Shown here: one piece after another, positions 1 to 46,623 of the stretch
Numbering within the stretch: the first letter of the stretch is position 1
Layout of the letters: each line of letters opens with the position of its first letter
Source: Daphnia carinata
Taxonomy: Eukaryota
DNA length: 64,000 nucleotides
Direction of reading: 5' to 3'
NCBI RefSeq assembly: GCF_022539665.2
Contig: NC_081331.1
Span: forward strand, 5,828,001-5,892,000
Translations under genes and position numbers: made by a program
Notes under the pieces: generated by a model
Told to the model about the DNA's origin: nothing
The model's input: the letters and a program-made list of their open reading frames with translations, nothing else
The model's database searches: none

Positions 1-129
1 GGATTTCAATCCAATCCCTTCGTTATTCAGGGTTACCCGCAAAAATTTCCAAATTATTACACTTATTCGGCCAGAAGCTCCATAACTATCAGGCAAAGGC
101 GGTACGGGTGAAGACATATGACGTCTTCT

Positions 130-380
130 TCCCCGCTTTCTCCTTCAAATATTCATTCGACAAAGCGTTATAGGGAGCTTGAATGAATCAGCTACCTTCC
201 CCCGGCATCCCGGTAGGCAATGAAACCAGGTAAAGTTGATTTGATTGTAAACAAATCCATAAACGGCAAACTTCTTTAAACACTGTACCGACTTTCATTT
301 CTCATAACTTTTTTAAATAATAGTTGAATTTTATGTCCTCGTTTGCCAATTGAACTGTGGACGGTGATGATTCCAATGTG
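130..380 (-). pseudogene. Degraded caspase small-subunit (p10) exon; remnant of a third kinase-caspase copy
   Basis: Aligns by eye with 4930-5176 (TIKSTLPGFIAYRD...FIQA). It has an extra base in a G run after RD and TGA where copy 2 has Trp (GSWF). Bases 1-105 also match the copy-2 3' flank at about 4357-4465. Confidence 0.8.
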
Positions 381-765
381 TCGGTTTCTCCCGTTTTCCG
401 TGTCCTTTCCACGTCAACTAATCATATATGCATAATATTATAAACGATTCATTTGTTTTCCTGGTATAATTAGATGTGTTAAACTAACAGTGGCTTTTAG
501 GATCATGGCTTTGAGCGGATTTGGAGGGAATACAAATTCAGTTCAATTTTATTAGTCTTTCTGAGTGGTCTTTGGCTGAAGATATCCAATGTATTGGCTA
601 GAGATGTTACAGATGACAATTTATAAATCACAGAACATTTTCAACAGACAGGATTTATCAACAGCAACTTGGATCTCCTATTGTTTTACTACTGGGAATC
701 ACGTACCAAATTCAAACTGAACCTCCAACTATAACAAACGCTAGGGTTTTACGATGAAATGGTAA

Positions 766-3248
766 TCATCCTTTCTTTGAATCTGGCTTAGGTGTAACGT
801 CTTTGCCTTTGACTGCACAGTTGCGAAATGTAATGTTTTTGCTCAGGCATGTTTCCCATTGCATGGTTTGCCAGAAGCACTGACACACACCTTGTTGCTG
901 GCCCTCACCTTGGTTCTTGCACTCAAATTGGTGCATGACATTCGCCATCTCTGCCCTTGAAAATGCATTGATTTTATCCTGAACACTCATTTTAAGTAAG
1001 TATTCCAGATGATGGGGATTATCTTTCTTCATTTCTTCGGACAAAGTATCACAGAGAGCGTTGATGAAAAAAGTACCTAGATCCTTGTTCCTGAAGGCTT
1101 CGAAGCCGGCCATAGCTGCTTTGATTGTTATGAAATCCATTAGTGGAGGATACTTCATAGCGTCTTGCCTTATTTTGCTTTCATAGTTGGGATTAATTTC
1201 CAATTTTGGCCATTTGACTTCGGTAGGTGATTGCCATTTACCTGGATAGCAGGAATACAAAGTCAAATTATTTTGCACGAAGGGTATTGATGAACTGAGA
1301 ATGTAAGTAGATGAGTTACAAACCGAGAGCAAAGGAAATGGTATCCCACATGTGGGGAAAAATGTCGCCGTTTTTACTCAATGGCACCTGACAAGCCTGG
1401 ACAATGAAAATTTTGGGTTTGCCGTACAGACTGGGGCAATTATATAAAGAGAACTCGTTCTTGAGTTCAGTATAATTAACGTATCGACCGTCGTAACACT
1501 GAATTGCGTTCTCGACTCCATGAGACAAAAGGCACACAATAAAGCATCCATAATCCTTCCAATCTCTTTTGGCCAGATTTTTGATTTTGGATATCAAATC
1601 AAACGATTCAAGATTTTCATAAACTTCAGTGTCGATACCCGATCCGTGAAACATAAGCTTTAACTTTTCTCGATCCTTGTCGCTACCTGCGCGGTTCTAG
1701 ATTAAAATAAAATAAAAGTAAATCAGTAAAAATGATGGAGTATCAACTGGCATTAAATAGGTAATAGAATTTCCATTGTGATACCTGTTCTTTATTTTTA
1801 AAAAATTGCTGGTTAAAGATAACGCAATGGCCAGGTTTCATCTCATTTCTCTTATTATATATATCATAATCTTTGACAGGGCTGAAATAAAGGCTGCAAA
1901 GGACTGCTTGTAATGTTGGACGTTCGCTTTCGTTGAACTTCAACATCAATTCCATAAGCCTTACCACGTCCTCGTTCCCATCACTGAGAACGAAGTCAAG
2001 GCCTTTGTTATAGACTGAATAATCTTTATTGTGAAGGTTTCGTATACGCAGACTGGAAGTGTCGCCGAATGGATGTTTGGGTTTTCCATCACCCGTACCT
2101 GCGGTTAGGACATAGTGATAGAAACAACCTAGGATGAAGACATCCAATGTTGTGCTGAGATCTTTTGTCACATCTGTACTTTCCGGTGCTTCCCATCCTT
2201 CTGATGCAGCAGATCCCGATAGCTTTCCAGTGTTCTCAAGGTCGTGCTTTCTGGTTAGACGAAAATCAGTTATTTTAACTACATATCGGCATAAGCTTTT
2301 CGCGGACGGATCAACTTCCTTAATAAGGAAGTTGTTTGGCTTGATGTTTCGGTGGACAAAGTTGTTTTCATGCAAGTAATTGAGTCCTCTCGTTGCCTGT
2401 CGTAGGATTTCTTTCTTTGGTAAATCCGAGAGAATTTCTTCATCCATGCAGAATTGATTATTGAGCTCTCGATCCAAAAGATCTGCCACAGAACACAGAC
2501 ACAGTTCTACTGCAAGGTACCTGCGGAAATAATCAACAAGGTTTTCAAAGCAAAGAATAAAAGAATAAACGCAGGTTGCTACTTCATACATATAGTTCTC
2601 ATCTTGTCTATGAGTGAAATAGCGGATAAAATTTTCGTGGGCTTCTAGTTCTTTCAATATTCGACACTCCCGTTCAATTTCTTTCTTCTGATCTTCGGTG
2701 TAGACCAGCAATGTCTTTACGATGGCCACTAGAACATCGCAGTTGTAGTTGTAGACCCCTTTAAAAAAATTTCTTTTTTGCTTTTTTTCTGAATTTTCTT
2801 TTTTTTTATTTCCTTGCCCTTCTGAATTATTTTTTTTTTTATTTTCTTCTTCTTCTGGATTGCCGGACAAATATTGCAAAACGGGCTTTCCATTTTTCTT
2901 TTCAGTGTAAGCATAGTAAAGATTACCATTATCCTCCTCATGTTCTGCGACAAATAGAGAAAATTTCAAACAAGTGTTTTTAGTGATTAAACGTTTTTGG
3001 TTTCCTAGAACCACGTCAGACGCAATCACGGAAATATGAGACATACCGACATTTGGAATTCTCTCCTTAAGTGGAATGCGTAGCAACGTTTTGTCGTCCG
3101 ATTTAACCAGTGTTCCATCTCCTTGGCTTGGACTGGACTCCTGGAAATTGCGCTCTAATCTTAATTGGCTGGTAGCCGTAGGAGTACTCTTGGAGTTGTC
3201 AGCCTCCGTAGATAACACTCTGTGTCTTTTGAAGGTGCTCCGTTCCAT
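766..3248 (-). CDS. IRE1-like pseudokinase-caspase fusion protein, copy 1 (exons about 3248-3047, 2944-2590, 2520-1785, 1696-1324, 1241-766)
   Basis: Kinase motifs VAIVK, EREC, HENFIRYF, YLAVELC, HRNIKPNN, DFR, GWEAPE, DVFILGC, HPFG resemble the IRE1 kinase. In the same exon the reading frame continues into caspase p20 (PGHCVIFNQ|NRAGSDKD...CLLSHG...GKPKIFIVQACQV) and then p10 (DFITIKAAMAGFEAFRN...GTFFINALC). GT-AG introns join the ORFs in phase. Confidence 0.88.
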
Positions 3249-3249
3249 T

Positions 3250-4140
3250 TTTTTGTTCCAGATGTACTAAAGCACTGTTTGGTGTCGTGGCACAGTGTTG
3301 ATAAGTAGCCTGATTCTGTCCAAGTCGTTCTTCAACCACTCGTTGTGTCCGCTCACTGAACGTCTATAATATCAGATATATCTACGCATTTACTTAAAAT
3401 TTATGTGCAGGAAGTCGTTCGTTTTACTATCACTATAGCACAATACGTTTTATCAGTTGTTAACAGATAAACCTTTTCACCTGTAGATATGAAATTATAG
3501 CTGGCGTTATCTATCCTATCGGTTAACAGCAACATTTGCTAGGTAAAAAAGCCACGTAATAGGATCACAAGCTAGCTTATGTGTGGAATCTACTAATGCG
3601 TAGAACGAAAAGCCTATACAAACTGGACAAATTTCTATCCTTCTAGCTAGACCGTACAGTCTTCAGCCCTTTTACTGTCATATAAATACCTTATGCTAAC
3701 CAACGGCACCCTTGGAAATAATCTACTAAATCCTCTCACGAGTTGGCGTGATGAGATTAGATACGATAAAAGGACGCCTTGTCTTGTCACATAAGTCAGA
3801 GGGGCTGAACTCAACCGAAATAAGAAATTCATGGTTGGAAACTAGGCTTACAAGAACGAATTCAGTTTCTCACTTGAGGTCCTTTCTTTTTTTTGCAAAT
3901 ATCTATCCTGATTGTTCTGCCTTTCACTACCTTTTCTTATTTGATATTTTCCTAGTTAACAGTTGGCTAATGTATGAACTTTCTTTGCCCTTACTTAAAC
4001 GAACTTTGCTCTCGGTTGCGGTGTTGCATTTCCTGGTGAAGAATTCCGGGACTAGTAACGGCAGCAACTAGCACATCGCTTTAATGTGCCCCTATCACCA
4101 TCAATCCTAAATACCGAAATACCTGACGAAAAAAACACCA
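3250..4140. repeat. Duplicated upstream non-coding block of kinase-caspase copy 1 (paralogous to about 7160-8010)
   Basis: Long near-identical stretches, e.g. aaaaggacgccttg...gaaataagaaattcatg...ctaggcttacaagaacgaattca at about 3770-3865 and about 7611-7707. Confidence 0.9.
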
Positions 4141-4724
4141 AAAAGGGAAACAACAAACATTTAAAAATGTTCTGGAAGTGCGCTACTATGGAGACACCTG
4201 AGCAAGTATTCTTCTCCTTTTTTTCCCCTCTTTTTCCTTATTCATTTGCTGTTGTTCTTGTTCGGCTTGTCATGTTGTTAATTTACTGTTCTGTCAGTTG
4301 ATTACACACAAAATTTTAAATCAATTTATTATCTACTTTTTCTTTATTAATAATTGGATTTCAATCCGGTCCCTGCGTTACTCAACGTTACCTGCAAAGT
4401 ATCCCACCCTGCAAATTATTACACTTATTCAGTTTAGAAACTCCAATTATCAGGCAAAGGCGGTATTATAGTAGAGGAGGTGGCCGAAACGAGGTTTTAA
4501 GTCCCCCTTCATATCTACAAATAAAATCGAAACAAATATTAAACGTTTACCGATAGTGATAATAGGGAAATAAGATGATTTCATACTGGTTGTATTTGAA
4601 GTTTCATAAATGCTCATAATGATTTTGGCTTCAAACATTCTGTTTTTCAAAGAAAACGATTTACGAACTTTAGAAGATTTGATACACGTAGAGCTCATTA
4701 AAATCAATTTGCATCTCTCAACAA

Positions 4725-7132
4725 TTATTGTTCGATGTTAAATGCGCCCATATCTTTTCTATCATTCATTGTAATGTCAGTGCCTTCGGTGACACCTTTC
4801 TGAAATCGAATGTTTTTACTTATGCTTGCTTCCCATTGCATAGTTTGCCAAAGGTCCTCTTGTGAATTTGTGTTAATTTCGTTCTGAACACATTTAAGTA
4901 AGTCTGTAAGATCCTTTTGTGATGTTCCCGCTTCCTTCTCCAAATATTCATCAGACAGAACTTCACAGAGAGCTTGAACGAACCAGCTGCCTCCCTCGGG
5001 ATCCCGGTAGGCAATGAAACCAGGTAGAGTTGATTTGATTGTAAGGAAATCCATAAGTGACGGATTTCTTTGAGCGCTGTCCTGACTTTTCTTTTCTAGT
5101 AACTCCTTTTTGTAATTGCTGGCTGTTATGTCCTCCTTTGCCAATTGAACTAGGGATCGTGATAATTCCAATGTACCTGGATAGACGGAATACAAAAAAT
5201 CTAGTTATTCTGCATGAAAGGTATCGATGAACTGAAGAAGAAGAGAAAATCAGTTCCAAACCGGTTAAATGCGAGTAAATGACACGAGGAACGGACAGTA
5301 GCTTTGAAATGAAGGTCGGTGGAGAGTAAAAAAGAACATCTCTTCCCATTTCCTGTTGTATCAGGTTTCCTTGGCAAGCCTGGGCGATGAAGATTTTGGG
5401 TTTGCCATACAGACTGGGGCACTTATACGAAGAGAACTCGTATTTTAATTCATTTATGTTAACGAATTTGCCATCGTAACATAAGATTGCATTCTCAATT
5501 CCATGAGACAAAAGGCACACAACTAGGCAACCATAATTCTTGAAATCTCTTTTGTTGGCCAGCTCGTTGATTTCAGATTTCAAATCATCCGACGTTAGAT
5601 TTTGGTGAACTTCAAAATCGAAACCAAGCTTTTTAAATGTATTCTTTAACGCTTCTTCATCCTTGTCGCTCCCTTCACGGTTCTGGTAGAAAATGAAATA
5701 AATTGATAAACAAAATCTTTGAGTATTAGGGAAAACAAGCAGTGTTTGACAAGTAAGAACTTCCGTGGTACCTGTTTCGGATCTTCAAATTCTTGCTGGT
5801 TAAAGATAACACAAAGACCGGGTTTAACATCTTGATCAGCACCTTGATCAGCATATATCTTGTAATCTTCGGAAGGTTTGAAATAAACATTATCAAGAAC
5901 ATTTTCTAATGTTGGACGTTCGTCCTCCTTGAACTTCAACATCCAATTTATAAGGTCTTCCGCCTTTTTCATGTCCTTGATATTTTCACTGGTAGCGAAC
6001 AGAAAGCCATTTTTCAATATTGAATAAAGTGGATCTTGAATGTTTGTCCGACGATTACTTTCATCGCCGAATGGATGTCTGGGCTTTTGGTCGCTCGTCC
6101 ATGCGGTTAGGACATAGTAATAAAAACAACCGAGAATGAAGACATCCAATTTTTTGCTGAGGTTTTTTGTCGTATCTCTGCTTTCCGGTGCTTCCCATCC
6201 TCCTGATGCAGCAGGTCCCGATGACGCCAAATCTTGTTGAGGATCATACTTTCTCGACAGGCGAAAATCTGTTATTTTTACCACAAATCGGCAAGAGCTT
6301 TCACCTGTTTTATTAATCTCTTTAATAAGAAAATTATTTGGCTTGATGTTGCGATGGATAAAGTGGTTTTTATGCAAGTAATTGAGTCCATTCGTTGCCT
6401 GTCGTAGGATTTCTTTCGCTGGTATTTTGAGAATATCGTCTTTCATGGGGATTTTCGTTTCGAGGGGTGGATCCAAAAGATCTGCCACAGAACACAGGCA
6501 CAGTTCTGTTGCAAGGTACCTGTGTAAATAATCAAAAAAGTTTTCAACGCAAAGCAAAGAATAAACGAAGGTTGCTGAGTCATACACATAGTATAAGTCT
6601 TTTTCCTGAGTGAAATAGCGAATAAAATTTTCATGGACCTCTAGTTCTTTCAATATTCGAAACTCCCGTTCAATTTCTTTATTCTGCTGGTCGCTGTGGA
6701 CCAGCAATGTCTTTACGATGGCTACTTGAACATCGTAGTTGTAGAACCCTTTAATAATTACTCTCGTTTTCTTTTCTGTGGAGCTATTTGCATTTTCTTT
6801 TGGCTCGCCGGCTAAATATTGAGGCTTTAGGCTTCCATTTGTTAGAATATAACCTTGGAAAAGACTACCATTACCTAAAGAGAAAATTTCAAGCAAGTTT
6901 TTTTAGTGATTAAACGTCTTTTGGTTTCCTCCACATCCAATAAAATCACAGGGAAGTGGTACGTACTGATAATTGGTTTTTTCTTCTCAAGTAAGGGTGT
7001 GTCTACGCCTTCCAATTCAACCGCTGTTCTTTCTCGTTGGGTTGGGCTGGACTCCTGGATATTGGGCACTAATAGCGGTACTGGGTTGGCCGTAGCGGTA
7101 CTCCCAGAGCTGTCAGCCTGTGTAGAAAGCAT
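4725..7132 (-). CDS. IRE1-like pseudokinase-caspase fusion protein, copy 2 (exons about 7132-6967, 6874-6586, 6519-5772, 5682-5262, 5176-4725)
   Basis: Same exon structure as copy 1. Kinase motifs HRNIKPNN, DFR, GWEAPE. Caspase motifs PGLCVIFNQ|NREGSDKD, CLLSHG, QACQG, and p10 DFLTIKSTLPGFIAYRDPEGGSWFVQALC. The start codon is uncertain because the copy-1 ATG position reads AGT here. Confidence 0.88.
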
Positions 7133-7159
7133 TCTGAGTTCTTCGAAGATACTCCGTTC

Positions 7160-8010
7160 ACTTTTTTTTTCAGATGTACTAAAGCACTATTCGGTGTAGA
7201 CTACGTGACACAGTGTTTAATAAGTAGCCTGATTCTGTCCTAGCCGTTCTTCAACCACTAGTTGTGCCGGCCAACTGAACATCGTCTAATATCAGAGATA
7301 TCTACGCATTTGTTTAAAACTTATCTGCGATTAGTCGTTCGCTTTACTATCAGTGTATTGCACAATACGTTATAGCAGTTCTTAACAGATAGATAATAGA
7401 AAAGCATCTCCTGGTCGCGATTATAATTTCCAGCAAATAGCTGGTATTATTAACCATTTTGATTTAAGTTGCATTCTCCAAGCAAAGCTCGAACTCGCGA
7501 CCTCCAACTATGCGCTAACCAACTATGCCACTAGAGATGTTATATAGCTACGCACTAAAAAAATACTACTAGATGCTTTTACGAGTTAGAATGATGAGAT
7601 TAGATACGCCAAAAGGACGCCTTGCCTTGTCGCCTAGGTCAGTGGGGCTGAACCCAATCGAAATAAGAAATTCATGCTTAGAACCTAGGCTTACAAGAAC
7701 GAATTCAATTGCTCATTCGAGGTTTTTTTGCAAATATCTATCCTGATTGTTCTGCTCTTCTCTACCTTTTCCTGTTTGATATTTTCCTAGTTAACAGTTG
7801 GTTAATGTATGAAATTTTCCCTTACCTAAACGAACTTTACTCTCGGTTGCGGTGTTGCATTTCCTGGCAAAGCGTTCCGCCGCTAGTAACAGCAGCAACT
7901 AGCACATCGCTTTGCCCTATCACATGTATGTGCCGTATCGCCATCAATCCTCTTAAATATCGAAACTTCATAAAGCTCTGACGAAGATATAGCAACAAAT
8001 GGCAACAACA
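7160..8010. repeat. Duplicated upstream non-coding block of kinase-caspase copy 2 (paralogous to about 3250-4140)
   Basis: Direct sequence match to the copy-1 upstream region. Confidence 0.9.
7474..7537 (-). pseudogene. tRNA-Ile-derived remnant lacking the anticodon arm and intron
   Basis: The reverse complement TCTCTAGTGGCATAGTTGGTTAGCGCAT-AGTTGGA-GGTCGCGAGTTCGAGCTTTGCTTGGAGAA matches both ends of the tRNA at 11172-11292. A-box-like and B-box-like sequences are retained. Confidence 0.8.
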
Positions 8011-8156
8011 AGCATGTAAAGATAAAGAAACTGAAGTTACTCAAGTACAATTGATTTATATTTTTACATTTTAAGTAGACACTATTTGGCTATGGTAAAT
8101 TTGTCACTAACGTTTCAACGCAAATTGTGTCTTAACAACATGAAAATTCGAAAACA

Positions 8157-10496
8157 TTAGCAAGTTGTTCCATACGTTTGAGTAGATTCGTCGTCTTGGA
8201 TAAGCCGTTCGCGTTCATCGTTGATGCCGATGGTTATGGAAGCCGTTTTCCCAATTTGCACAACATTGGAATCGGTTTCTTTCGGCAACAATGGCGGGGA
8301 CTGGGTAGACGAGGTTGTTTTTGACCGAGAGGCGGAAAACGTTACGTAGACTAGCAATACGAGAGCGACGGCCAAATTCAGTAATCCGATAGCTGTTATC
8401 GCGAGGGGGAAGTTATACACGTCAACTAGAATGCTGCCAATGTACGGACCTAAAACCTCCCTGTGCAAAACATAATAAAGAAAACCAACAACAATTTTAG
8501 GTTGACGTAACCTAAAAGATTTCATTTTTCTTTGTGCTTACCCTAAAGAATACATTGACGCCCACAAACCTGCAATCACGCTATATGTACTCATTTCCGT
8601 CTCACAACCTACTTGCCTGAATATTCATCGCAAAAAAATGTCAATATGCAACGTAAATTAGTAATCATTGTTTTTAACGTTACACTGCATGTTGAAGTAA
8701 AGCTTGGTATGTTGGTACATAAGCCAAGGCTACAAAAGTTCCAATCAGGACTAGGGATAAAATATTGAGCCATAACACACTGTAGGAGTGTAAATTGTAT
8801 AATTAGCAATATAAACGGATGTACTGTGCATTTGGTTCTATACTTAGGGATTTGTGGTAAGAGTGGAGATGGTCCAAGTAAAAGCAAGCCAATGGCAGTG
8901 ATTGATAACCCAATAATCATCATCATACTTCCGTGGTTATACTTGCTTACCAACCAGCCCCATATAGGACTTGAGATTGCTGAGCTGACTGAAGTGACAA
9001 GGAATAGCAGGCCAAGTTGCATTGGGCCCAACTGAAACTAAAGTACAGCAAATGACAAAGACGGCTTTAGCTGTGTACAATAAAATGGTGAAGCATGAAA
9101 CAAAACAAATAAACGTTCCTCCAGAAGAAATAACAAAACATTTATTACCTGTTCCATCCGAATAACTAGCGTGGGTTCTAAAAAACTCCACGCACATGAT
9201 GAAACAGCAATCACCACGCATATGATAGGAACAGTTGGCACTTTGAAAATTATGGCCAATACTTTAGTTCCAACGGGTTCTTTAGCATGACAATATTCTG
9301 TTTTTGGCAGAAAAATTATGCTGAACGGCAACGTCAGTAGCATTACAGAACCCATAACGTAGAAGGGAAGCTGTAATCCTCCCAATGTGAATAGAGATCC
9401 TAGAAGGAACGCAAATTAAAGCACAATGTATACAACATATAATATTTCAGATTTTTTTACCCCCCAAAAGAGGTCCAACAGAGAATCCCAAGCCAATAAA
9501 TGTCTCTAAAATTCCCTACATAGAAAAATTCATTAGATGCTTAAATTTTCATTGTAAGGGTAAGTGCTAATATTTACCATAATTATACTAATTTTATCAG
9601 GAAATAATTTGGCAACATAAGTGGTTCCTGCTGTAGAGAAAGCTGAAGCCCCAGCAGCTCCCAATCCTCTCACAACTAAACACAGGATGGTAAACTTTGT
9701 ATCATCCTTCACATGTTCGAGAGTTCCAAATAAGAGATTGCAACTCCCAAAAAGGAAAACTCCTAATGTTTTTGAAATACATAAACAAATAATGTCACCC
9801 AACTATACAGGTTACATTGCTGTTCACTTACACCATGTACTCACCTGATGTAAACATAAATTTTGGACCAATGGATGGTGTGATGTGACCAATGAAAGGA
9901 GAAGTACAAAACACTACTGCTGGATGAATACTGAAAATAAGACCTAAAAAAAAGTGGAATATAACACTGCTTACATAACTGAATATGAATATAATACCAT
10001 AAGTGCTGGTGGAAATATTGTGCAAAATGGCTATCTTGAATTAATTTGTGAATGACAAATGGAAGCCAAACTCATTACAGATACAAGCTGAAATTTTCCA
10101 AGTATTTACCTCATAAAAAAATGTAGAGAGCATGGCGATTGTGCAGAAGCAAACAAAATAGACAGTACATATAAGGGCAAGTGTCCATTTTTGGTATTGT
10201 TCTAGTTGCTTAAAAATTGCTCTATTTCTAGTAAGAATGAGGAATTTGTTTCTCATTTTCGTAACTTCTTCGTCTGAGTGCTTCAATCTTTTTTCATTGA
10301 GATTCGATACAGACATACATCTTGCTGTTTGTGCAATTTGTTTTTCCTGTGGGCGATGACATTCTTGGAAAGCATGATCTGTGATTTCGGTACCGCTGTC
10401 ATCAGTGAGTTTCAGATAGGGTAGCCCTGCTGGCGAAACAACAATCGTGTCACTCATTGTTGCAAAAAGAGGCTGGGGCGAACTTCTTCCAACCAT
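8157..10496 (-). CDS. MFS-type transporter, SLC18B1-like (multi-exon)
   Basis: Hydrophobic exons GLIFSIHPAVVFCTSPFIG..IGPKFMFTSG, CLVVRGLGAAGASAFSTAG..AKLFPDKIS, GGLQLPFYVMG, FLEPTL, GLLLLGPSPLL, EVLGPYIGSILVD match the SLC18B1/VMAT-like family pattern. Short GT-AG introns. Confidence 0.85.
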
Positions 10497-11171
10497 TGTC
10501 ACTGACCATCAACACAGACAGATTCCACAATGTTTAAATTTTTCGCGCAGGGTTTTCCTTCGTGCCCAGCATTTTACCGACGTAAACAATTCCCTCCCCT
10601 TTCGAAAACTCACTAGCGCTCATGCGGTCAGCCGTTAAAGCTTTATGGATGGGGCGGATTACAGAATTTTGTTTTGTTTTGAAGACAAATGTTTGATATA
10701 TCGACACCCTAATTAAACTGAAATTTGTAAATCGAAGATCAATATTAAACTCAAGAAACCCATACCTTAGTAAATTATTTGCTAGTGCAGGGAAGTTGTA
10801 ATGCAAATGGCTAAATATTAACAGTTTAATAACTTGAACTAACTTGAACCCTTCCCACTCAAAGTTGTCCCCCTTCTTTTTTTTTTACTCCACTGTTCAT
10901 TTTCAGAAGCATTCGTCCTTGAAAATGGCGGATCTGTGACAATTTGATAAAAAGCCAATCCATATGATGTTGTATCCTTATCTTCTAAAACAAAGGCGTA
11001 GAAAATGAACTTCCAAGAAAAGAAAATCAAATTGGAGCAGCCTTAAACATTGTTTGTCATTATCCTACAGATCATAGCATTTTCGATTGGAACATTCTTT
11101 GGCCTGACGAGTGCCAAATTAAACTTTTGCAGAGTAACTAGAACTACTGTTCTTTTATGTAAAGTATAACG

Positions 11172-11743: not shown

Positions 11744-13951
11744 ATGGGTCAGTTTCAACCTGTCACTCATGTCCTCTTTGATATGGATGGCTTGCTGCTA
11801 GGTAATATTCAAAATTCTTATTTTCAGTACTTTTGTCAAAATTGACCGGGAAAAACAGTTTTATTTCAGTAGATGAATAAATAACTTTTATGCACACTTA
11901 TGTAATACCCACAGCTTGTCTTGGGAAACATTTACGTGGTGATGGGTCACCTTGACTTCACCTTGAGTTATCCTTTGATCTTGCTGATCAAGTTCTGTGA
12001 CATACTTTACAAAAATTTTGCTACATTACATGTGATATTATAGACACAGAAGACCTGTACACAATAGCAACCCAAGAGATAGTGAGTCAGTATGGAAAGG
12101 ATTACACATGGGAAATCAAGACCACAGTTATGGGGTTTATCGGAAGGGATGTGGCGGTTGCCTTAGTGGAAAAAATGGAGCTTCCCATGACACCAGATGA
12201 GTATTTATTGGCGACAAGTGAAGTTCTGTGCAAGTTATTCCCCACTTGCAAGCTGTTACCAGGTCAGCCCCTGTTTCAGACAACCAAACTCAAGCACTGA
12301 ACTTAGTTCAATATCAATCAATACCATAAGATCTTTATTTTTTTACATGGGTAGATTTTAAGAATTTAAGTTTTTCAGATGCAACCGCAACCCAAGGATC
12401 TTAAATCACATTGGCCAGGATACGATTTCATTTTTGCCATAATTTTTATTGCATAGATACGGAAGCCTTGTACACAATCACCATACAGCAGATTGCTAAT
12501 CAATATGGCGGGAAAATTTTTACATGGGAAATGAAATCTAAGCTAATGGGGATGATGGGGCGAGAGGCAGCAGTCGCCATCATTGAAACATTAGATCTCC
12601 CAATCAAGCCAGAGGAATACATGAATTCTTCTCAACAAATAATGGCTAGGATGTTCCCGTCTTGTAAATTTTTACCAGGTCAGCCAAAACGAAAAAGGCG
12701 GGATCTTTTCAAGTTTCCGTTGTAGGCTTTGCGTACGTGGCACGTTGCCATAACTTGCATATTTTAAATTATTATTTGTTTCTCTTGATTCCACAAGCGG
12801 ACGCATGATTACAGTCCAAGGCCCTTAATAATTTATTTTTCATTTATTTTATTTATCAATTTATTTTATTTTTAGTTTCTCTCCCACTCCCTCACACGAA
12901 GCTAAAGCGGCGGTGTTGTTTGTTAAGGAGACCACTCAGAATTCCTTGGTCTGTGGTTTATTCTTGTCATGTGTGCGCCTGGTACTTAATATCATCGCAT
13001 CCCCGCTTCCATTAGATTCGGAAGATATTTACTCGCGGGCCATCCAAGAGGTATCCGACCGATACGGAGGCAAGACCTTCACCTGGGAGCTCAAAGTTCG
13101 CCAAATGGGACTGGTTTCGGCCGATTTAGCTGCGTTAATCGTCAAAGAACTAGAACTTCCCATTACGGCTGACGAGTATTTGGCCGAGGTGGGGCCGGTC
13201 AACGTTAGGCTATTTCCAAGCGCCAACTTGATGCCAGGTACTTGCATGACAAGACCATCGCATCCGGCAATCAGTGTGAGGGAGAACTGTAGCACCCATT
13301 TTCGTTCCTTTATTTTCTTTTCACTAAGAAACACAACTTTTTTTTATTGTAGATCAGTGCTTGAGTTTTTTTTAGTTCTTTATTTTATATCAGTTTTGGT
13401 TGTATGCATGTCGTTGTTGAATGCTTTTATTTTTTCATGCATAAACATCATTGTACTTGTATAACGAATAGGTGCAGAACGTCTTCTACGCCATTTGCAT
13501 TCGAAGGGCGTGCACATTGCACTAGCTACAAGCAGCAGCCGCGAGAATTACGAATTAAAAACAACCCACCATGGAAGTGTGTTTCAATTGTTTCAACATA
13601 TCGTAACTGGCAGCTCTGATCCAGAAGTCAAACGTGGCAAACCTGCGCCTGATATTTTCTTGATTTGCGCGTCTCGATTTCCCGAGCCGGCCCCACACCC
13701 ATCAAGCGTACGTTACTTCAACCTGTTTTCTGTTCATTTGTCTAATTCATATTTTTGAATCCGTTCATTGACAGTGTCTAGTATTTGAGGATGCTCCAAA
13801 CGGAGTGAAAGCCGCACGAGCAGCCGGTATGCAAGTAGTGATGGTACCGGATCCTCGTATGGATCCACTTTTGACTCAAGAAGCCACACTTGTGCTCAGA
13901 TCACTAGAAGACTTCAAACCGGAACTTTTTGGCCTGCCTGCCTATGATTAA
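11744..13951 (+). CDS. HDHD1: Pseudouridine-5'-phosphatase (HAD family, HDHD1/PUDP/GS1-like); exon 1 11744-11801, one of exons 2a/2b/2c, exon 3 13472-13707, exon 4 13775-13951
   Basis: HAD motif [15 protein letters not shown], motif II ALATSS, motif [11 protein letters not shown], motif [13 protein letters not shown], and C-terminus [13 protein letters not shown]. With a single exon 2 the product is 229-230 aa, typical of the family. Confidence 0.93.
12044..12262 (+). CDS. HDHD1: HDHD1 alternative exon 2a (cap domain, 219 nt)
   Basis: tag|AC ACA GAA... [36 protein letters not shown]...FPTCKLLPG|gtcagc; phase 1-1. Confidence 0.9.
12457..12678 (+). CDS. HDHD1: HDHD1 alternative exon 2b (cap domain, 222 nt)
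   Basis: tag|AT ACG GAA... [37 protein letters not shown]...FPSCKFLPG|gtcagc; phase 1-1. Confidence 0.9.
13016..13237 (+). CDS. HDHD1: HDHD1 alternative exon 2c (cap domain, 222 nt)
   Basis: tag|AT TCG GAA... [37 protein letters not shown]...FPSANLMPG|gtactt; phase 1-1. Confidence 0.9.
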
Positions 13952-21000: not shown

Positions 21001-21526
21001 GGTATTCCGAGATCTGACAACGTCTACCGTGTAGAAAAAGGGTGGGCCGGACAACATGGCGACAAGTGGTTATTGAAAAGAATATTAGGGTAAGTGCCAT
21101 TTGGGGTTGTAGGACTAGTTTTTTCTCAGGTCCCAGTGCGGTAGGATACATCTACTTCAATCTGGAACTTTGATTAAGGTAGAAATGGGTTAAAGGTCGA
21201 AGCTTATCAGGCTCTATTTGCAGCCCTCAACCCTAACGTTAGCTAACGCAGACAAGTCTCACACACACACACACTCAGTTCACCCCCCTTGGGGCGATTT
21301 GGGTTTGTTTTTCTCTTCTCGCTCTCTCCCGTTCGCTTAGTCCGCGGCCTGAAGTGGGTTGGTGAGCGCTGCTTCGTGCCAGGGTGGGGCATTCGGGTGT
21401 AAATTCGTTCTCCTTCTGAAGTTTTGCACCACAGTGATTGTGTTTAGTTTCATCTTCTCTCTCTTGCTCTCCAGGTACAGAACACTGTGACTTGTGCACG
21501 AGTCAAATGCTAGCAGCAGCAGCACC

Positions 21527-23374
21527 ATGGCCTCATCTTCTCCGTCTCCCCAGCAGCAGTTCTGCCTGCGATGGAATAATCACCAGTCTGCTCTTGTCTC
21601 AGTGTTCGACCACTTGCTCCAGAGTGAGGCCTTTGTCGATGTTACTCTGGCCGTTGAGGGTCTTCTCCTCCGGGCCCACAAATTAGTGCTCTCAGCCTGC
21701 AGCCCATATTTCCAGGCTATGTTTGCATCCCATCCGGCCAAACACCCAATCATCATTCTCAAGGATGTCCGCTACAATGACCTGCGAGCACTTTTGGATT
21801 TCATGTACAAAGGGGAAGTGGCTGTGGATCAGGATCGCCTGCCCGCATTCCTCCGACTGGCTGAAAGTCTCAAGATCCGCGGCTTGGCCGAATTCTGCGA
21901 GGAAAGCCTCTCTCAAGCCACTTCACAGCCGCCCATCTTCGATTCATTGTTGGATTCACAAAAGAGAAACCACCCGTCAGGACCTCCATCAGTTTCGCAC
22001 CAGCAATCGCAACAGCAGTCCCTCAAATGCGGCTCCCGCACCCCTGACGGCCGTAGAACTTTTGCCCGTTTCAAATCAAAGACCGCCTATCGATTTTAGC
22101 GTGCCGGCCATGGCCAGCATGTTTGGCTCTCCGGTTCCCTTGGCGAGTGCACGCAGCAGTAGCAGCATGAGCAGTTCCAACAAGCGGCCTTCCAGCCCTC
22201 AAACATACGCTCACCACAGGAGGAAGCGAGGCAGACCCCCTCGTCAATCCTACTCTGAATCGGTATTGATATTTTACACGTTAATGCCGAAAAAACAGTG
22301 ACCAAAACTCTTTGAATTTGTCTCATTTTCTCACAGGCTGGAATACTGAACAACGCTGTGGGACTGAAATCAAACGCTAGCAAGGACGTCCGAGGCTCTA
22401 GCCCTGAAGTTATGGAAATGAATGTCGATCTTCTCTCCATGGGCGTCGCGAACAACGGACCCGAAACTGCCCTCACCCCTCATGCACCGACCAATTCTAA
22501 CGCTCACGGTACGTTATTCCATTGTTCATTACGCCAAGCAATACGTTCAAGTTTCTTTTAACTCTAAATAGATTCTTCTTCCACGGCTCAAGACGATCAC
22601 ATCAAAGGGGCGTCGTCGCGGAATTCCAGCCCCGTCAACAACACCTCTGTTGCGAAACTCGAACCTTTACCTCTTCTGGAATCTGACACGCGACCGGACG
22701 GCTTAGAACCTCAAGCAGGACCTTCGTTTGAAAGCGATTTTGACAGTAGCAGGCGCGGTGGAAAATCAGGTTTAATTTCATTCCTTGACTCATCTTTTGA
22801 CTAAACTCCCGTTTCCCCTACCGTATTGCAGGTTTTTAATTATTTGTCTTATCTCTCTCTTTAAAAAAAAAAAAATAATAATAAAATAGGGAAGGGCAAC
22901 AGGAGAGCCCGTGGACGGCCGAGAGGTTACGGTCGCAACGCCAATTCGCTTGACCGTTCCCTTTTATCTGCCGATTCGTTGGATGATTTGGCTGGTCCGT
23001 CACAAAGGGAAGGTTCAAGCACGCCGGATCGGACACTGCTGGGCGGCTCCAACAGCAACTCGAACAACACCGAGCAGTTGCAGGAAATGTCCATTCGCGG
23101 ATTGAATCTCTTCCGCTACGCATCCGTCTCGGAAGAGGGCATGTACCGCTGCATACCCTGCGAGAAGGAGCACGTGACGCGGACATTCAAGAATAAGTAC
23201 AGCTTCCAACGGCACGCGTATCTTTATCACGAGGGCAATCAGCGCAAGGTGTTCCCGTGTCTTGTGTGTGGACGAGAGTTTTCGCGACCCGATAAACTCA
23301 AACACCACCTCAAGACCGTTCACGACTACGCTGTTCCGCGCGAGTATAGCAACGCCTACTACTCCCTGCCCTAG
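21527..23374 (+). CDS. ttk: Tramtrack (BTB + AT-hooks + two C2H2 zinc fingers, Ttk88/alpha-type); exons about 21527-22262 (apparent +1 shift near 22021), 22337-22508, 22572-22769, 22890-23374
   Basis: The BTB domain QFCLRWNNHQSALVSVFDHLL...HPAKHPIIILKDV...DQDRLPAFLRLAESLKIRGL is of the ttk type. The zinc fingers YRCIPCEKEHVTRTFKNKYSFQRHAYLYHEG..RKVFPCLVCGREFSRPDKLKHHLKTVH match my recollection of Drosophila Ttk88. AT-hook-like motifs RKRGRPP and RARGRPR. Confidence 0.88.
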
Positions 23375-28731: not shown

Positions 28732-30127
28732 TCACGTTGATTGCAATGCTTTTGACAACAATTGCTTCTGGAATACTTTGAGGAAAGCAGGCTCGCTCAT
28801 CGCAAACAAGGCACATCCGTCGTGCTCCCTATACAAACGAAAACATCAGCTTGGAAATGAATTGCAGTTGAGAGAAATACTCACTCGTTGATGACGTAAC
28901 CGATAATGTTGTTGTTGGTCTCTTTAAACACTCCCGATAGCTTTTCGTTGCCGACTTCTTTGAGCACGCACAAATCGTACAGTTCGTTGTTAGCGTTTTT
29001 CAATAATTGCGTGTGCTCTCTGACATAGCCGAACTGGCCGTAGAAACCCCTTTGAGCGATCCAGTCGAAAAAGTTGGAATGTTTCCAATTGATTTCGGCC
29101 ACTCGTTCGTCGAATCGGCGAGAGAAATATTCGAAGATTTGGACATCAGCTGCCAACCAACCGGCCAGTACGTCCCGTTCGCCTCCGGTCAATGGGCTCG
29201 ACTTGTCTGGTTTTCTTCGGTTCAAATCTAGGTGAATAACATCCTTCACAGACCAGTTGAGCAAATCCATTAATAGGACAAGAGATTCATCCATCCGGTG
29301 GGCCATCATGACGAGATCGAACTCTCTGTCTAATCGTTCAATTTCCCTATTCATTGCCTCTTTGTCGTCGAAGATGTTGGGAGACAGTCCCATGTCCCAA
29401 GCCATTTGATTGCGACCGATATAATTGAGCCAGCGCTTGTTCAGCACAGGTAACGAGGGTTTTGTTTTGATTTTCTCCACCATTTCGTGGATATCCTTGA
29501 CTCCGTAAAACTCTCTGAATTTATCTTGGTAGTAAAACATGGAGATGAACACTTCCACCGGGTCACGCACTATGGTGAACGTCGGGACTCGTTCGTTTAA
29601 TAATATCATGACTTCTTCCCTATTCCAGCGGTTGTGCAATGAGAATATGTCGAAAGGCAAATTCCTCCATTTCGTGTTATTCAGTGTTTTATGATTGAAG
29701 AGCGCAGTCGTGGACAGATAGTTCCCACTTTCAGGTAACACGACGTTTAAATTATGCTTGTGCGCATATCTGTAAAATATGTTTCAGTAAATCGAAATCG
29801 AAGCTTTTGTCGATTGAACTTTACCTGAATATGATATTTTCGATTGTACTGCTACCGCATTTGTGATTTTTCATGAATGCAAATTTTCTGTGATTTGAAA
29901 AACAATAAATTATTGGGACCCATGTGAGCTGTTAGGGTTGGAATCCTGAGGTATAGCAAATAGATAATGCACAACAATCAAAACATGATTTTTTACCTGG
30001 CTGGAGTTGGGTTTTTCTGTGGCTCCGTTGTAATCCAATGGATACAGGTAACAAAAAGGGAAAAACAAATAGCAGCGATGCACCATTTGGTGAATCGACG
30101 GTTAAGCAAAACAGAAAAGCGAAACAT
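28732..30127 (-). CDS. Galactose-3-O-sulfotransferase / galactosylceramide sulfotransferase-like (type II membrane protein)
   Basis: N-terminal TM segment (KWCIAAICFSLFVTCIHW), PAPS motif FAFMKNHKCGSSTIENIIFR, TIVRDPVEVFISMFYY, RNQMAWDMG, EFDLVMMAHRMDESLVLL. Four exons with GT-AG junctions. Confidence 0.9.

Positions 30128-38812: not shown

Positions 38813-46623
<7,811 letters not shown>

Follow-up and report, generated by a model that had tools for sequence, protein, structure and literature searches.

Two tandem genes for fused kinase-caspase proteins

The stretch of Daphnia carinata DNA analyzed here, 64,000 nucleotides of contig NC_081331.1 and referred to below as the window, contains two neighboring genes whose products join an IRE1-like pseudokinase to a caspase. 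Both genes are on the minus strand, in head-to-tail tandem, with five exons each. Copy 1 (766..3248; LOC130691332) has exons at 3248-3047, 2944-2590, 2520-1785, 1696-1324, and 1241-766 and encodes 713 amino acids (aa), and copy 2 (4725..7132; LOC130691333) has exons at 7132-6967, 6874-6586, 6519-5772, 5682-5262, and 5176-4725 and encodes 691 aa. All eight introns (four per gene, at homologous positions) are 66-102 nt long and have GT-AG boundaries; introns with GA donors were rejected, as canonical GT donors upstream fit. The spliced translations agree at every residue with the D. carinata RefSeq proteins XP_057370245.1 (copy 1, P0001 in our set) and XP_057370247.1 (copy 2, P0011), both annotated as uncharacterized, and the two proteins are 49% identical to each other. 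The original prediction, made from the sequence of the window, had placed the tandem at 766..7132, and these limits were correct, with the stop codon of copy 1 ending at 766 and the ATG of copy 2 at 7132.

Pfam profiles matched both proteins above the curated cut-offs, with scores for copies 1 and 2 of 92 and 108 bits for Pkinase, 79 and 104 bits for the p20 part of Peptidase_C14, and 27 and 50 bits for its p10 part. The predicted lack of a CARD or DED, a KEN/RNase domain, a signal peptide, and a transmembrane (TM) segment was upheld: a Pfam scan of seven open reading frame (ORF) pieces gave no match to CARD, DED, ankyrin, or Ribonuc_2-5A (KEN), and a hydropathy scan found no TM or signal segment, the most hydrophobic 19-mers (1.24 in copy 1 and 1.52 in copy 2) both lying inside domain cores. 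Contamination was rejected, since the genes have introns and Daphnia-type neighbors.

Kinase and caspase are joined within one exon

In both copies exon 3 runs from the kinase C-lobe straight into the opening strand of the caspase, without a linker. This exon (1785..2520, minus strand) extends in copy 1 from the kinase hinge to the end of the C-lobe and the first caspase strand, with the junction at 1892-1815, and the corresponding exon of copy 2 (5772..6519, minus strand) has the junction at 5888-5802. The same layout was found in metagenome loci L001-L006 and L008, in which introns precede the motif Y.A.ELC and follow CVIFNQ. Among the 43 metagenome loci returned, 11 belong to the family, nine of them reading from kinase into caspase and two stopping inside the kinase. 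Given the shared exon and the recurrence of its layout in these loci, two neighboring genes or an annotation artifact were rejected, and the claim that this is a true fusion holds for both copies.

A whole 745-aa frame, 98-99% identical to XP_032793888.2, is contained in two Logan contigs (2381 and 2376 nt) from a relative of D. magna, and other contigs of the same D. magna-type cluster contain the 261-aa exon 3 frame only, which runs into an intron. As the full frame is intron-free in the former and the latter contain an intron, we infer that the 2381- and 2376-nt contigs are spliced single transcripts. The D. pulex RefSeq orthologue (P0080/P0218/P0222) is split into kinase-only and caspase-only isoforms. 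Reading the D. pulicaria junction with a one-base shift of frame reproduces the tail of the kinase-only isoform (11 of 11 residues, against 0 of 1000 shuffled tails), and because of this fit we read the split as a frameshift allele or an assembly error, not as a separate gene.

An AlphaFold2 model of copy 2 built with 74 family sequences had a mean predicted local distance difference test score (pLDDT) of 81 and a predicted template modeling score (pTM) of 0.82 over 691 aa, with pLDDT values of 83-94 in the junction blocks and disorder limited to the N-terminus (about 45 aa), the p20-p10 linker, and the C-terminus. In the model, aa 367 is the last kinase residue and aa 368-668 align with the caspase fold, with a Z score of 31.4 and a root mean square deviation of 1.8 over 222 residues against caspase-8, which was tied with caspase-3. 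Because the pTM for the whole chain is 0.82, kinase and caspase are predicted to form a rigid two-domain unit with a fixed orientation.

Ancestry and residues of the pseudokinase

When a profile of the family kinases alone was searched against PDB, all 16 IRE1 sequences ranked first (142-150 bits, with the next kinase at 96), and IRE1 was also the top solved-structure match by fold in Foldseek. The family entered an 88-domain kinase tree with 46 rows (17 full-length, the other 29 exon-type or partial), chosen from about 90 sequences by dropping near-duplicates and short fragments. These rows formed one group with a Shimodaira-Hasegawa-like approximate likelihood ratio test (SH-aLRT) value of 99, and 11 fish RNase L-type rows stood apart (100), with no support for the deep branching. 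In a 43-row tree, with six metagenome-locus kinases as the root, the family was represented by 15 rows (100/99), which joined 11 IRE1 rows and two rows with leucine-rich repeats (LRR), kinase, and KEN at 86/86, a value that is below the starred level and carries a long-branch warning at the root. The IRE1 rows in the trees were labeled by matches to both kinase and Ribonuc_2-5A, and P0176 by motif only. The branch leading from IRE1 to the family is long (0.89). The prediction of an IRE1-like kinase is supported by the PDB search and by the grouping at 86/86; as for the place of the family relative to IRE1 and RNase L, the IRE1 side stood, and the RNase L side is a separation from the 11 fish rows, RNase L being represented in the trees by fish RNase L-type kinases. 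The KEN domain of IRE1 begins right after HP.FW, and the family caspase begins after the equivalent YF.P; because of this correspondence in the junction alignment, we place the caspase at the position of the RNase of IRE1, as had been suggested.

The IRE1-type pseudokinase core of copy 1 (aa 128-400; 1878..2765, minus strand) has HRN244 in place of HRD and DFR (271-273) in place of DFG, and the pseudokinase of copy 2, including its N-terminal strands (aa 46-367; 5874..6997, minus strand), has HRN209 and DFR (236-238). Across the 46 family rows the Asp of HRD is replaced by Asn in 45 and the Gly of DFG by Arg in 41, and the Gly loop is absent, with a charged insert in its place. The DFG Asp, the His and Arg of HRD, and the alphaF Asp are kept in every row, the catalytic-loop Lys in 41 and the catalytic-loop Asn in 36 rows, and the alphaC Glu in 16 of 18. 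HRN, DFR, the missing Gly loop, and the kept alphaC Glu had all been described for both copies, together with a retained beta3 Lys, which is probably wrong. In a gap-free register (VAVKR in IRE1 and VAIKR in fish; VAIRK, VCVRR, or VAIER in the family), Val stands at the Lys site (V143 in copy 1 and V109 in copy 2) and the Lys of VAIVK falls at +1, where IRE1 has Arg, though HMMER favors another register, with an insertion inside beta3, that aligns the Lys of VAIVK to the catalytic Lys. The 17 rows that reach this position have Val (nine), Leu (three), Glu (two), Arg (two), or Lys (one, P0075). It is probable, therefore, that copies 1 and 2 have lost the catalytic beta3 Lys, and the family kinase domain is likely a pseudokinase that is catalytically dead but not decaying. 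The 19 full-length members are on average 62% identical in each kinase lobe, 67% in p20, and 56% in p10; for the N-terminus and the linker, the values are 34% and 37%.

Copy 2 has E134 and R141 at the columns of an acid/Arg pair that we take to be the back-to-back salt bridge of IRE1, and Arg is present in 15 of the 20 rows with that column. The Ser of an S-G motif in the activation loop (S287 in copy 1, S252 in copy 2) is kept in 43 of the 46 rows and aligns with the third site of the IRE1 motif S-x-S-x-x-S, the first site being a gap in 44 rows and the second variable; its equivalence to IRE1 S729 is based on the spacing of this motif. PMC3988810 gives the IRE1 sites as S724, S726, and S729, reports autophosphorylation in vitro for the first two only, and suggests another kinase for S729.

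The caspase half

The caspase of copy 1 (aa 403-695; 823..1871, minus strand) has the His-Cys dyad H490/C533 and the P1-Asp pocket R433/Q531/R606, and that of copy 2 (aa 368-668; 4797..5873, minus strand) has H461/C504 and R403/Q502/R599, with the p10 Arg aligned to that of caspase-7. All 19 full-length members have SHG, Q.C, and the two pocket Arg residues, and 13 have QACQG, copy 1 having QACQV. SHG, QAC, and an Arg/Gln/Arg pocket had originally been noted in both copies and were confirmed, and by these residues the family caspase looks catalytically active. Asp occurs in one of two adjacent columns directly before p10 in 18 of the 19 members (Asp582 in copy 1, Asp574 in copy 2), and, by analogy with caspase-8 and caspase-9, which mature at a linker Asp, this is the likely maturation site. 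Of 27 rows, 22 have Glu at the center of the dimer strand (E657 in copy 2); by the end-to-end range of the fold match, this column corresponds to caspase-3 V266, a known allosteric position. In the caspase tree, the family forms its own clade (support of 99 without P0087 and 93 with it), outside the supported short-prodomain clade, and its base has no supported link to CARD- or DED-caspases.

Extent of the family and unusual members

A first protein search returned 30 proteins, 20 of them with both Pfam domains, from D. carinata, D. magna, and D. sinensis, and a profile search of 1.84 billion representatives added members from D. pulex, D. pulicaria, and D. galeata, bringing the fusion family to six named Daphnia species. 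The profile search also found many further proteins from ENA, JGI, and Logan that are 32-50% identical to copy 2, and these diverged relatives are presumed to be from other cladocerans. In addition, the ESM Atlas contains a 92-member arthropod cluster with kinase and caspase families on every member. In D. carinata, one scaffold carries six pseudokinase-caspase proteins plus a partial one and a second scaffold carries two, the paralogues being 44-72% identical, and a single-lineage paralogue group that includes P0022 is conserved across D. magna, D. sinensis, and D. carinata. The tandem family that had been proposed is larger and older than the two copies in the window. The automatic names of its members (MAPK4, DUN1, caspase-8, Dronc, ire-1) are misleading.

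Two members differ from the others. P0075, from a Logan contig of 2202 nt, has the pseudokinase and a caspase without both the catalytic His and Cys, and is a candidate for a cFLIP-like regulator. P0087, a partial protein from an ENA contig of 4051 nt, has the same kinase-caspase junction, a C-lobe that scores 81 bits against canonical IRE1 and 65 bits against the fusion family, and a caspase that is sister to the family caspases (support of 93); it is probably a less derived relic or early form of the same fusion. With P0087 as the query, a metagenome scan gave no match and the Atlas gave none at 0.9. P0065 of D. sinensis (1194 aa) reads kinase, partial caspase, kinase, and caspase in a single gene model and is probably an annotation merge of two neighboring genes. 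At L008, a second, different IRE1-like kinase (2546-3160, minus strand) is located just upstream of the family gene, on the opposite strand. The proteins P0088, P0109, P0183, P0119, and P0187 include LRR-kinase-kinase-KEN, LRR-caspase, ankyrin-caspase, and Ras-caspase architectures.

Sequence flanking the two genes

A broken p10-exon relic of a further copy-2-type paralogue is located at about 125-421 on the minus strand (79.5% identical to 4927-5174 by blastn; two frames with stops and frameshifts by tblastn), and positions 1-104 (minus strand) are the 3' flank of this relic, about 77% identical to that of copy 2. The gene array probably continues to the left of the window start, and no additional family copy was found right of 7300 within the window. 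A conserved non-coding block upstream of copy 1 (3716..4168, minus strand) is 79.5% identical to a block upstream of copy 2 (7558..8023, minus strand) and is a candidate promoter or 5' untranslated region; about 3270-3470 and 7190-7390, also upstream and non-coding, are about 80% identical. The upstream blocks contain long near-identical runs and their similarity is above the level of synonymous sites, for which shared regulatory sequence or gene conversion are candidate explanations. Rfam gave no match in 1-9000 of the window, and exact kappaB, DRE, and ERSE/UPRE motifs, searched as crude patterns, were not found upstream of the copies. A STAT-like pattern upstream of copy 2 only came from an uncontrolled scan and was not used as evidence. 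The other neighbors, identified by eye from ORF translations, are ordinary: an MFS-type transporter (8100-10500, minus strand), a HAD-type hydrolase (11800-13500, plus strand), a BTB zinc-finger protein (21491-23374, plus strand), a sulfotransferase-like protein (28881-29783, minus strand), and a matrix metalloproteinase (39117-42340, plus strand).

Comparison with known systems

IRE1 (ERN1) resembles the Daphnia family in being its top PDB match by sequence and fold, in having the effector directly after the last kinase helix, and in the activation-loop Ser and HRD Arg that the family has kept. In contrast to IRE1, the family has no luminal domain, TM segment, or KEN domain, uses a protease as effector, is multi-copy, and has lost the HRD Asp, the DFG Gly, the Gly loop, and probably the beta3 Lys. 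RNase L (ankyrin-pseudokinase-KEN) is cytosolic and likewise has an IRE1-family pseudokinase before a dimerization-dependent effector, according to PMC10942766, whereas the Daphnia family has neither the ankyrin sensor nor the nuclease and stands apart from the fish RNase L-type kinases. The likeness to the initiator caspases (caspase-8/Dredd and caspase-9/Dronc) and cFLIP consists of a long prodomain, a complete dyad with the Asp pocket, and the caspase fold, and, as with cFLIP, an inactive paralogue (P0075) exists in the Daphnia-type family. Unlike the initiator caspases, the family has a pseudokinase instead of a CARD or DED, a predicted rigid attachment, the dimer-strand Glu, and a clade of its own. 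In MLKL, also a pseudokinase, phosphorylation of the activation loop by another kinase frees a death effector; its kinase family is different and its effector is an N-terminal helical bundle, and it resembles the Daphnia family in logic only.

The profile search also found an alewife protein (LOC143121611, P0094) with PYRIN, Pkinase, and Peptidase_C14 in one chain, the only one with both domains among the 120 of 523 matches listed. Its kinase has HRD, DFG, and the Lys intact and belongs among the fish RNase L-type kinases, its linker is about 55 aa long, and its caspase falls within the fish DED-type caspase group. A common origin with the Daphnia fusion was rejected, because the kinase and caspase trees place the alewife halves with fish groups, and by these trees the alewife fusion, known from one genome annotation, is independent and apparently recent. 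An NLR-like alewife protein (P0274) carries a near-identical piece of the LOC143121611 kinase, and proteins with a CARD and an RNase L-type kinase occur in carps, characins, and catfish. Furthermore, the ESM Atlas contains a cluster of 91 bacterial kinase-Peptidase_C14 fusions, mostly from Actinomycetota, which are likened to the Daphnia family by domain order, the kinase preceding Peptidase_C14 in one chain.

A possible pseudokinase switch for a caspase

We propose, with a probability of about 0.5, that the IRE1-derived pseudokinase is a prodomain, gated by phosphorylation or nucleotide, that dimerizes and activates the caspase as part of an immune or stress response in the cytosol. This is proposed because IRE1 and RNase L pair through the kinase domain and initiator caspases are activated by dimerization. 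An upstream kinase would phosphorylate the Ser equivalent to S729 (S287/S252) and the kept HRD Arg would read the phosphate, or, alternatively, metal-nucleotide binding through the kept DFG Asp and catalytic-loop Asn could be the trigger. The switched pseudokinases would then pair back to back in the manner of IRE1 and RNase L, and pairing would drive dimerization of the caspase and then cleavage at the linker Asp, with cell death or immune signaling as the output. According to PMC10942766, IRE1 and RNase L dimerize back to back, and their nuclease needs ATP binding at the kinase domain. The logic would be analogous to that of RNase L, in which a pseudokinase gates an effector, with a protease replacing the nuclease. 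The kinase being about as conserved as the caspase among the full-length members supports this proposal, and a combined pseudokinase and pseudocaspase such as P0075 might be expected of a regulated, cFLIP-like system.

Several observations weigh against the switch. An earlier AlphaFold model from 19 sequences was poor (pTM of 0.48) and was replaced by the 74-sequence model, and the D. pulex orthologue is broken at the junction, the member being either dispensable there or mis-assembled. A domain that has lost the Gly loop and probably the beta3 Lys is not expected to bind ATP in the ordinary way, and the S-G motif and the HRD Arg may have been kept for structure alone. The acid of the putative interface is Glu or Asp in just 12 of 20 rows, and the D. 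galeata member has no evident linker Asp. No sensor domain was found, and the N-terminal 45 aa or so are predicted to be disordered. Finally, the ratio of nonsynonymous to synonymous substitution rates (dN/dS) between copies 1 and 2 is 0.73 (0.49-1.06) for the C-lobe, 0.90 (0.36-2.93) for the N-lobe, and 0.40 and 0.46 for the caspase, and weak constraint, diversifying selection, and gene conversion are candidate explanations for a kinase value near 1.

The tandem expansion, the paralogues at 44-72% identity, the relics, the split members, and the kinase dN/dS near 1 would also fit an arms race, in which the pseudokinase would be an integrated decoy that mimics IRE1 or another host kinase and a parasite effector that modifies or binds it, perhaps at the kept activation-loop Ser serving as bait, would trip the caspase. 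Such logic is that of the plant pseudokinases ZED1 and RKS1. We consider a decoy unlikely, as the conservation of motifs in very diverged relatives and of the P0022 group suggests a core function, and the word "caspase" does not occur in the main text of the infection studies PMC10375369 and PMC3170911 or in five supplements of PMC11193740. The decoy is partly compatible with the proposed switch and differs from it in the trigger. It seems more improbable that the pseudokinase is a docking adaptor of the unfolded protein response, which would join canonical IRE1 oligomers at the endoplasmic reticulum (ER) and link unresolved ER stress to proteolysis. Descent from canonical IRE1 and the kept alphaC-beta4 surface (KELE.HENFIRYF) fit such a role, and the activation-loop Ser could meet IRE1; however, the long branch (0.89) and the large expansion would be surprising in the fixed partner of a housekeeping sensor that is single-copy, exact ERSE/UPRE motifs are absent upstream by the crude patterns used, and PMC3988810 reports no phosphorylation of S729 by IRE1 in vitro. 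The switch, the decoy, and the docking adaptor have a common architecture and differ in the trigger.

The pseudokinase might instead be an inhibitory or passive prodomain that is cut off, or a weakly active kinase, with the caspase working as an ordinary effector. HER3 is an example of a weakly active pseudokinase, and the DFG Asp, the catalytic-loop Lys, and the Asn are kept in the Daphnia family; furthermore, both copies have an Asp at the junction (KDY and EDY) at which a prodomain could be removed. This Asp, however, lies inside the confidently folded, linker-free joint of the AlphaFold2 model, the caspases are outside the supported short-prodomain clade, and residues of the signaling type are conserved family-wide, and we regard this explanation as the least probable of those considered here. 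A switch and a decoy had both been suggested originally. The present analysis adds sequence evidence for a switch gated by phosphorylation, and the phosphorylation- or nucleotide-gated switch is the reading that we prefer.

Novelty and significance

A full-text literature search found no paper describing a kinase fused to a caspase in any animal, Daphnia included, within its coverage, outside of which lie subscription journals and most supplements, where a domain census could mention the pairing. In the passages covered, the D. pulex immune survey PMC2685406 describes eight caspases with prodomains excluded and never uses the word "kinase", PMC3710099 lists KEN-kinase architectures without the word "caspase", and PMC3482391 and PMC7768685 have no bearing on such a fusion. 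The pseudokinase-caspase architecture is real, family-wide, built from known parts, visible in automatic annotation, and apparently undescribed. The known animal initiator caspases are switched on via death-fold prodomains and adaptor platforms, and a rigid IRE1-type pseudokinase in a conserved and expanded family would be another way of caspase control. A bolder reading, which we hold only tentatively and think doubtful, is that these proteins are a new caspase class with a phospho-gated pseudokinase switch made from the IRE1 module, in which the caspase would have replaced the RNase, catalysis would have been lost, and the one activation-loop site to be phosphorylated by another kinase would have been kept. 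If this were true, the proteins would convert a kinase signal to caspase activity in a single chain, with no need of a death-fold adaptor or apoptosome, there would be active and decoy paralogues, and the same idea would have arisen separately in a fish. The family would be a natural test of whether the kinase module of IRE1 and RNase L is a portable dimer switch, its proteins are soluble, about 650-750 aa long, and directly assayable, and Daphnia, in which it occurs, is a main model for host-parasite coevolution and ecotoxicology.

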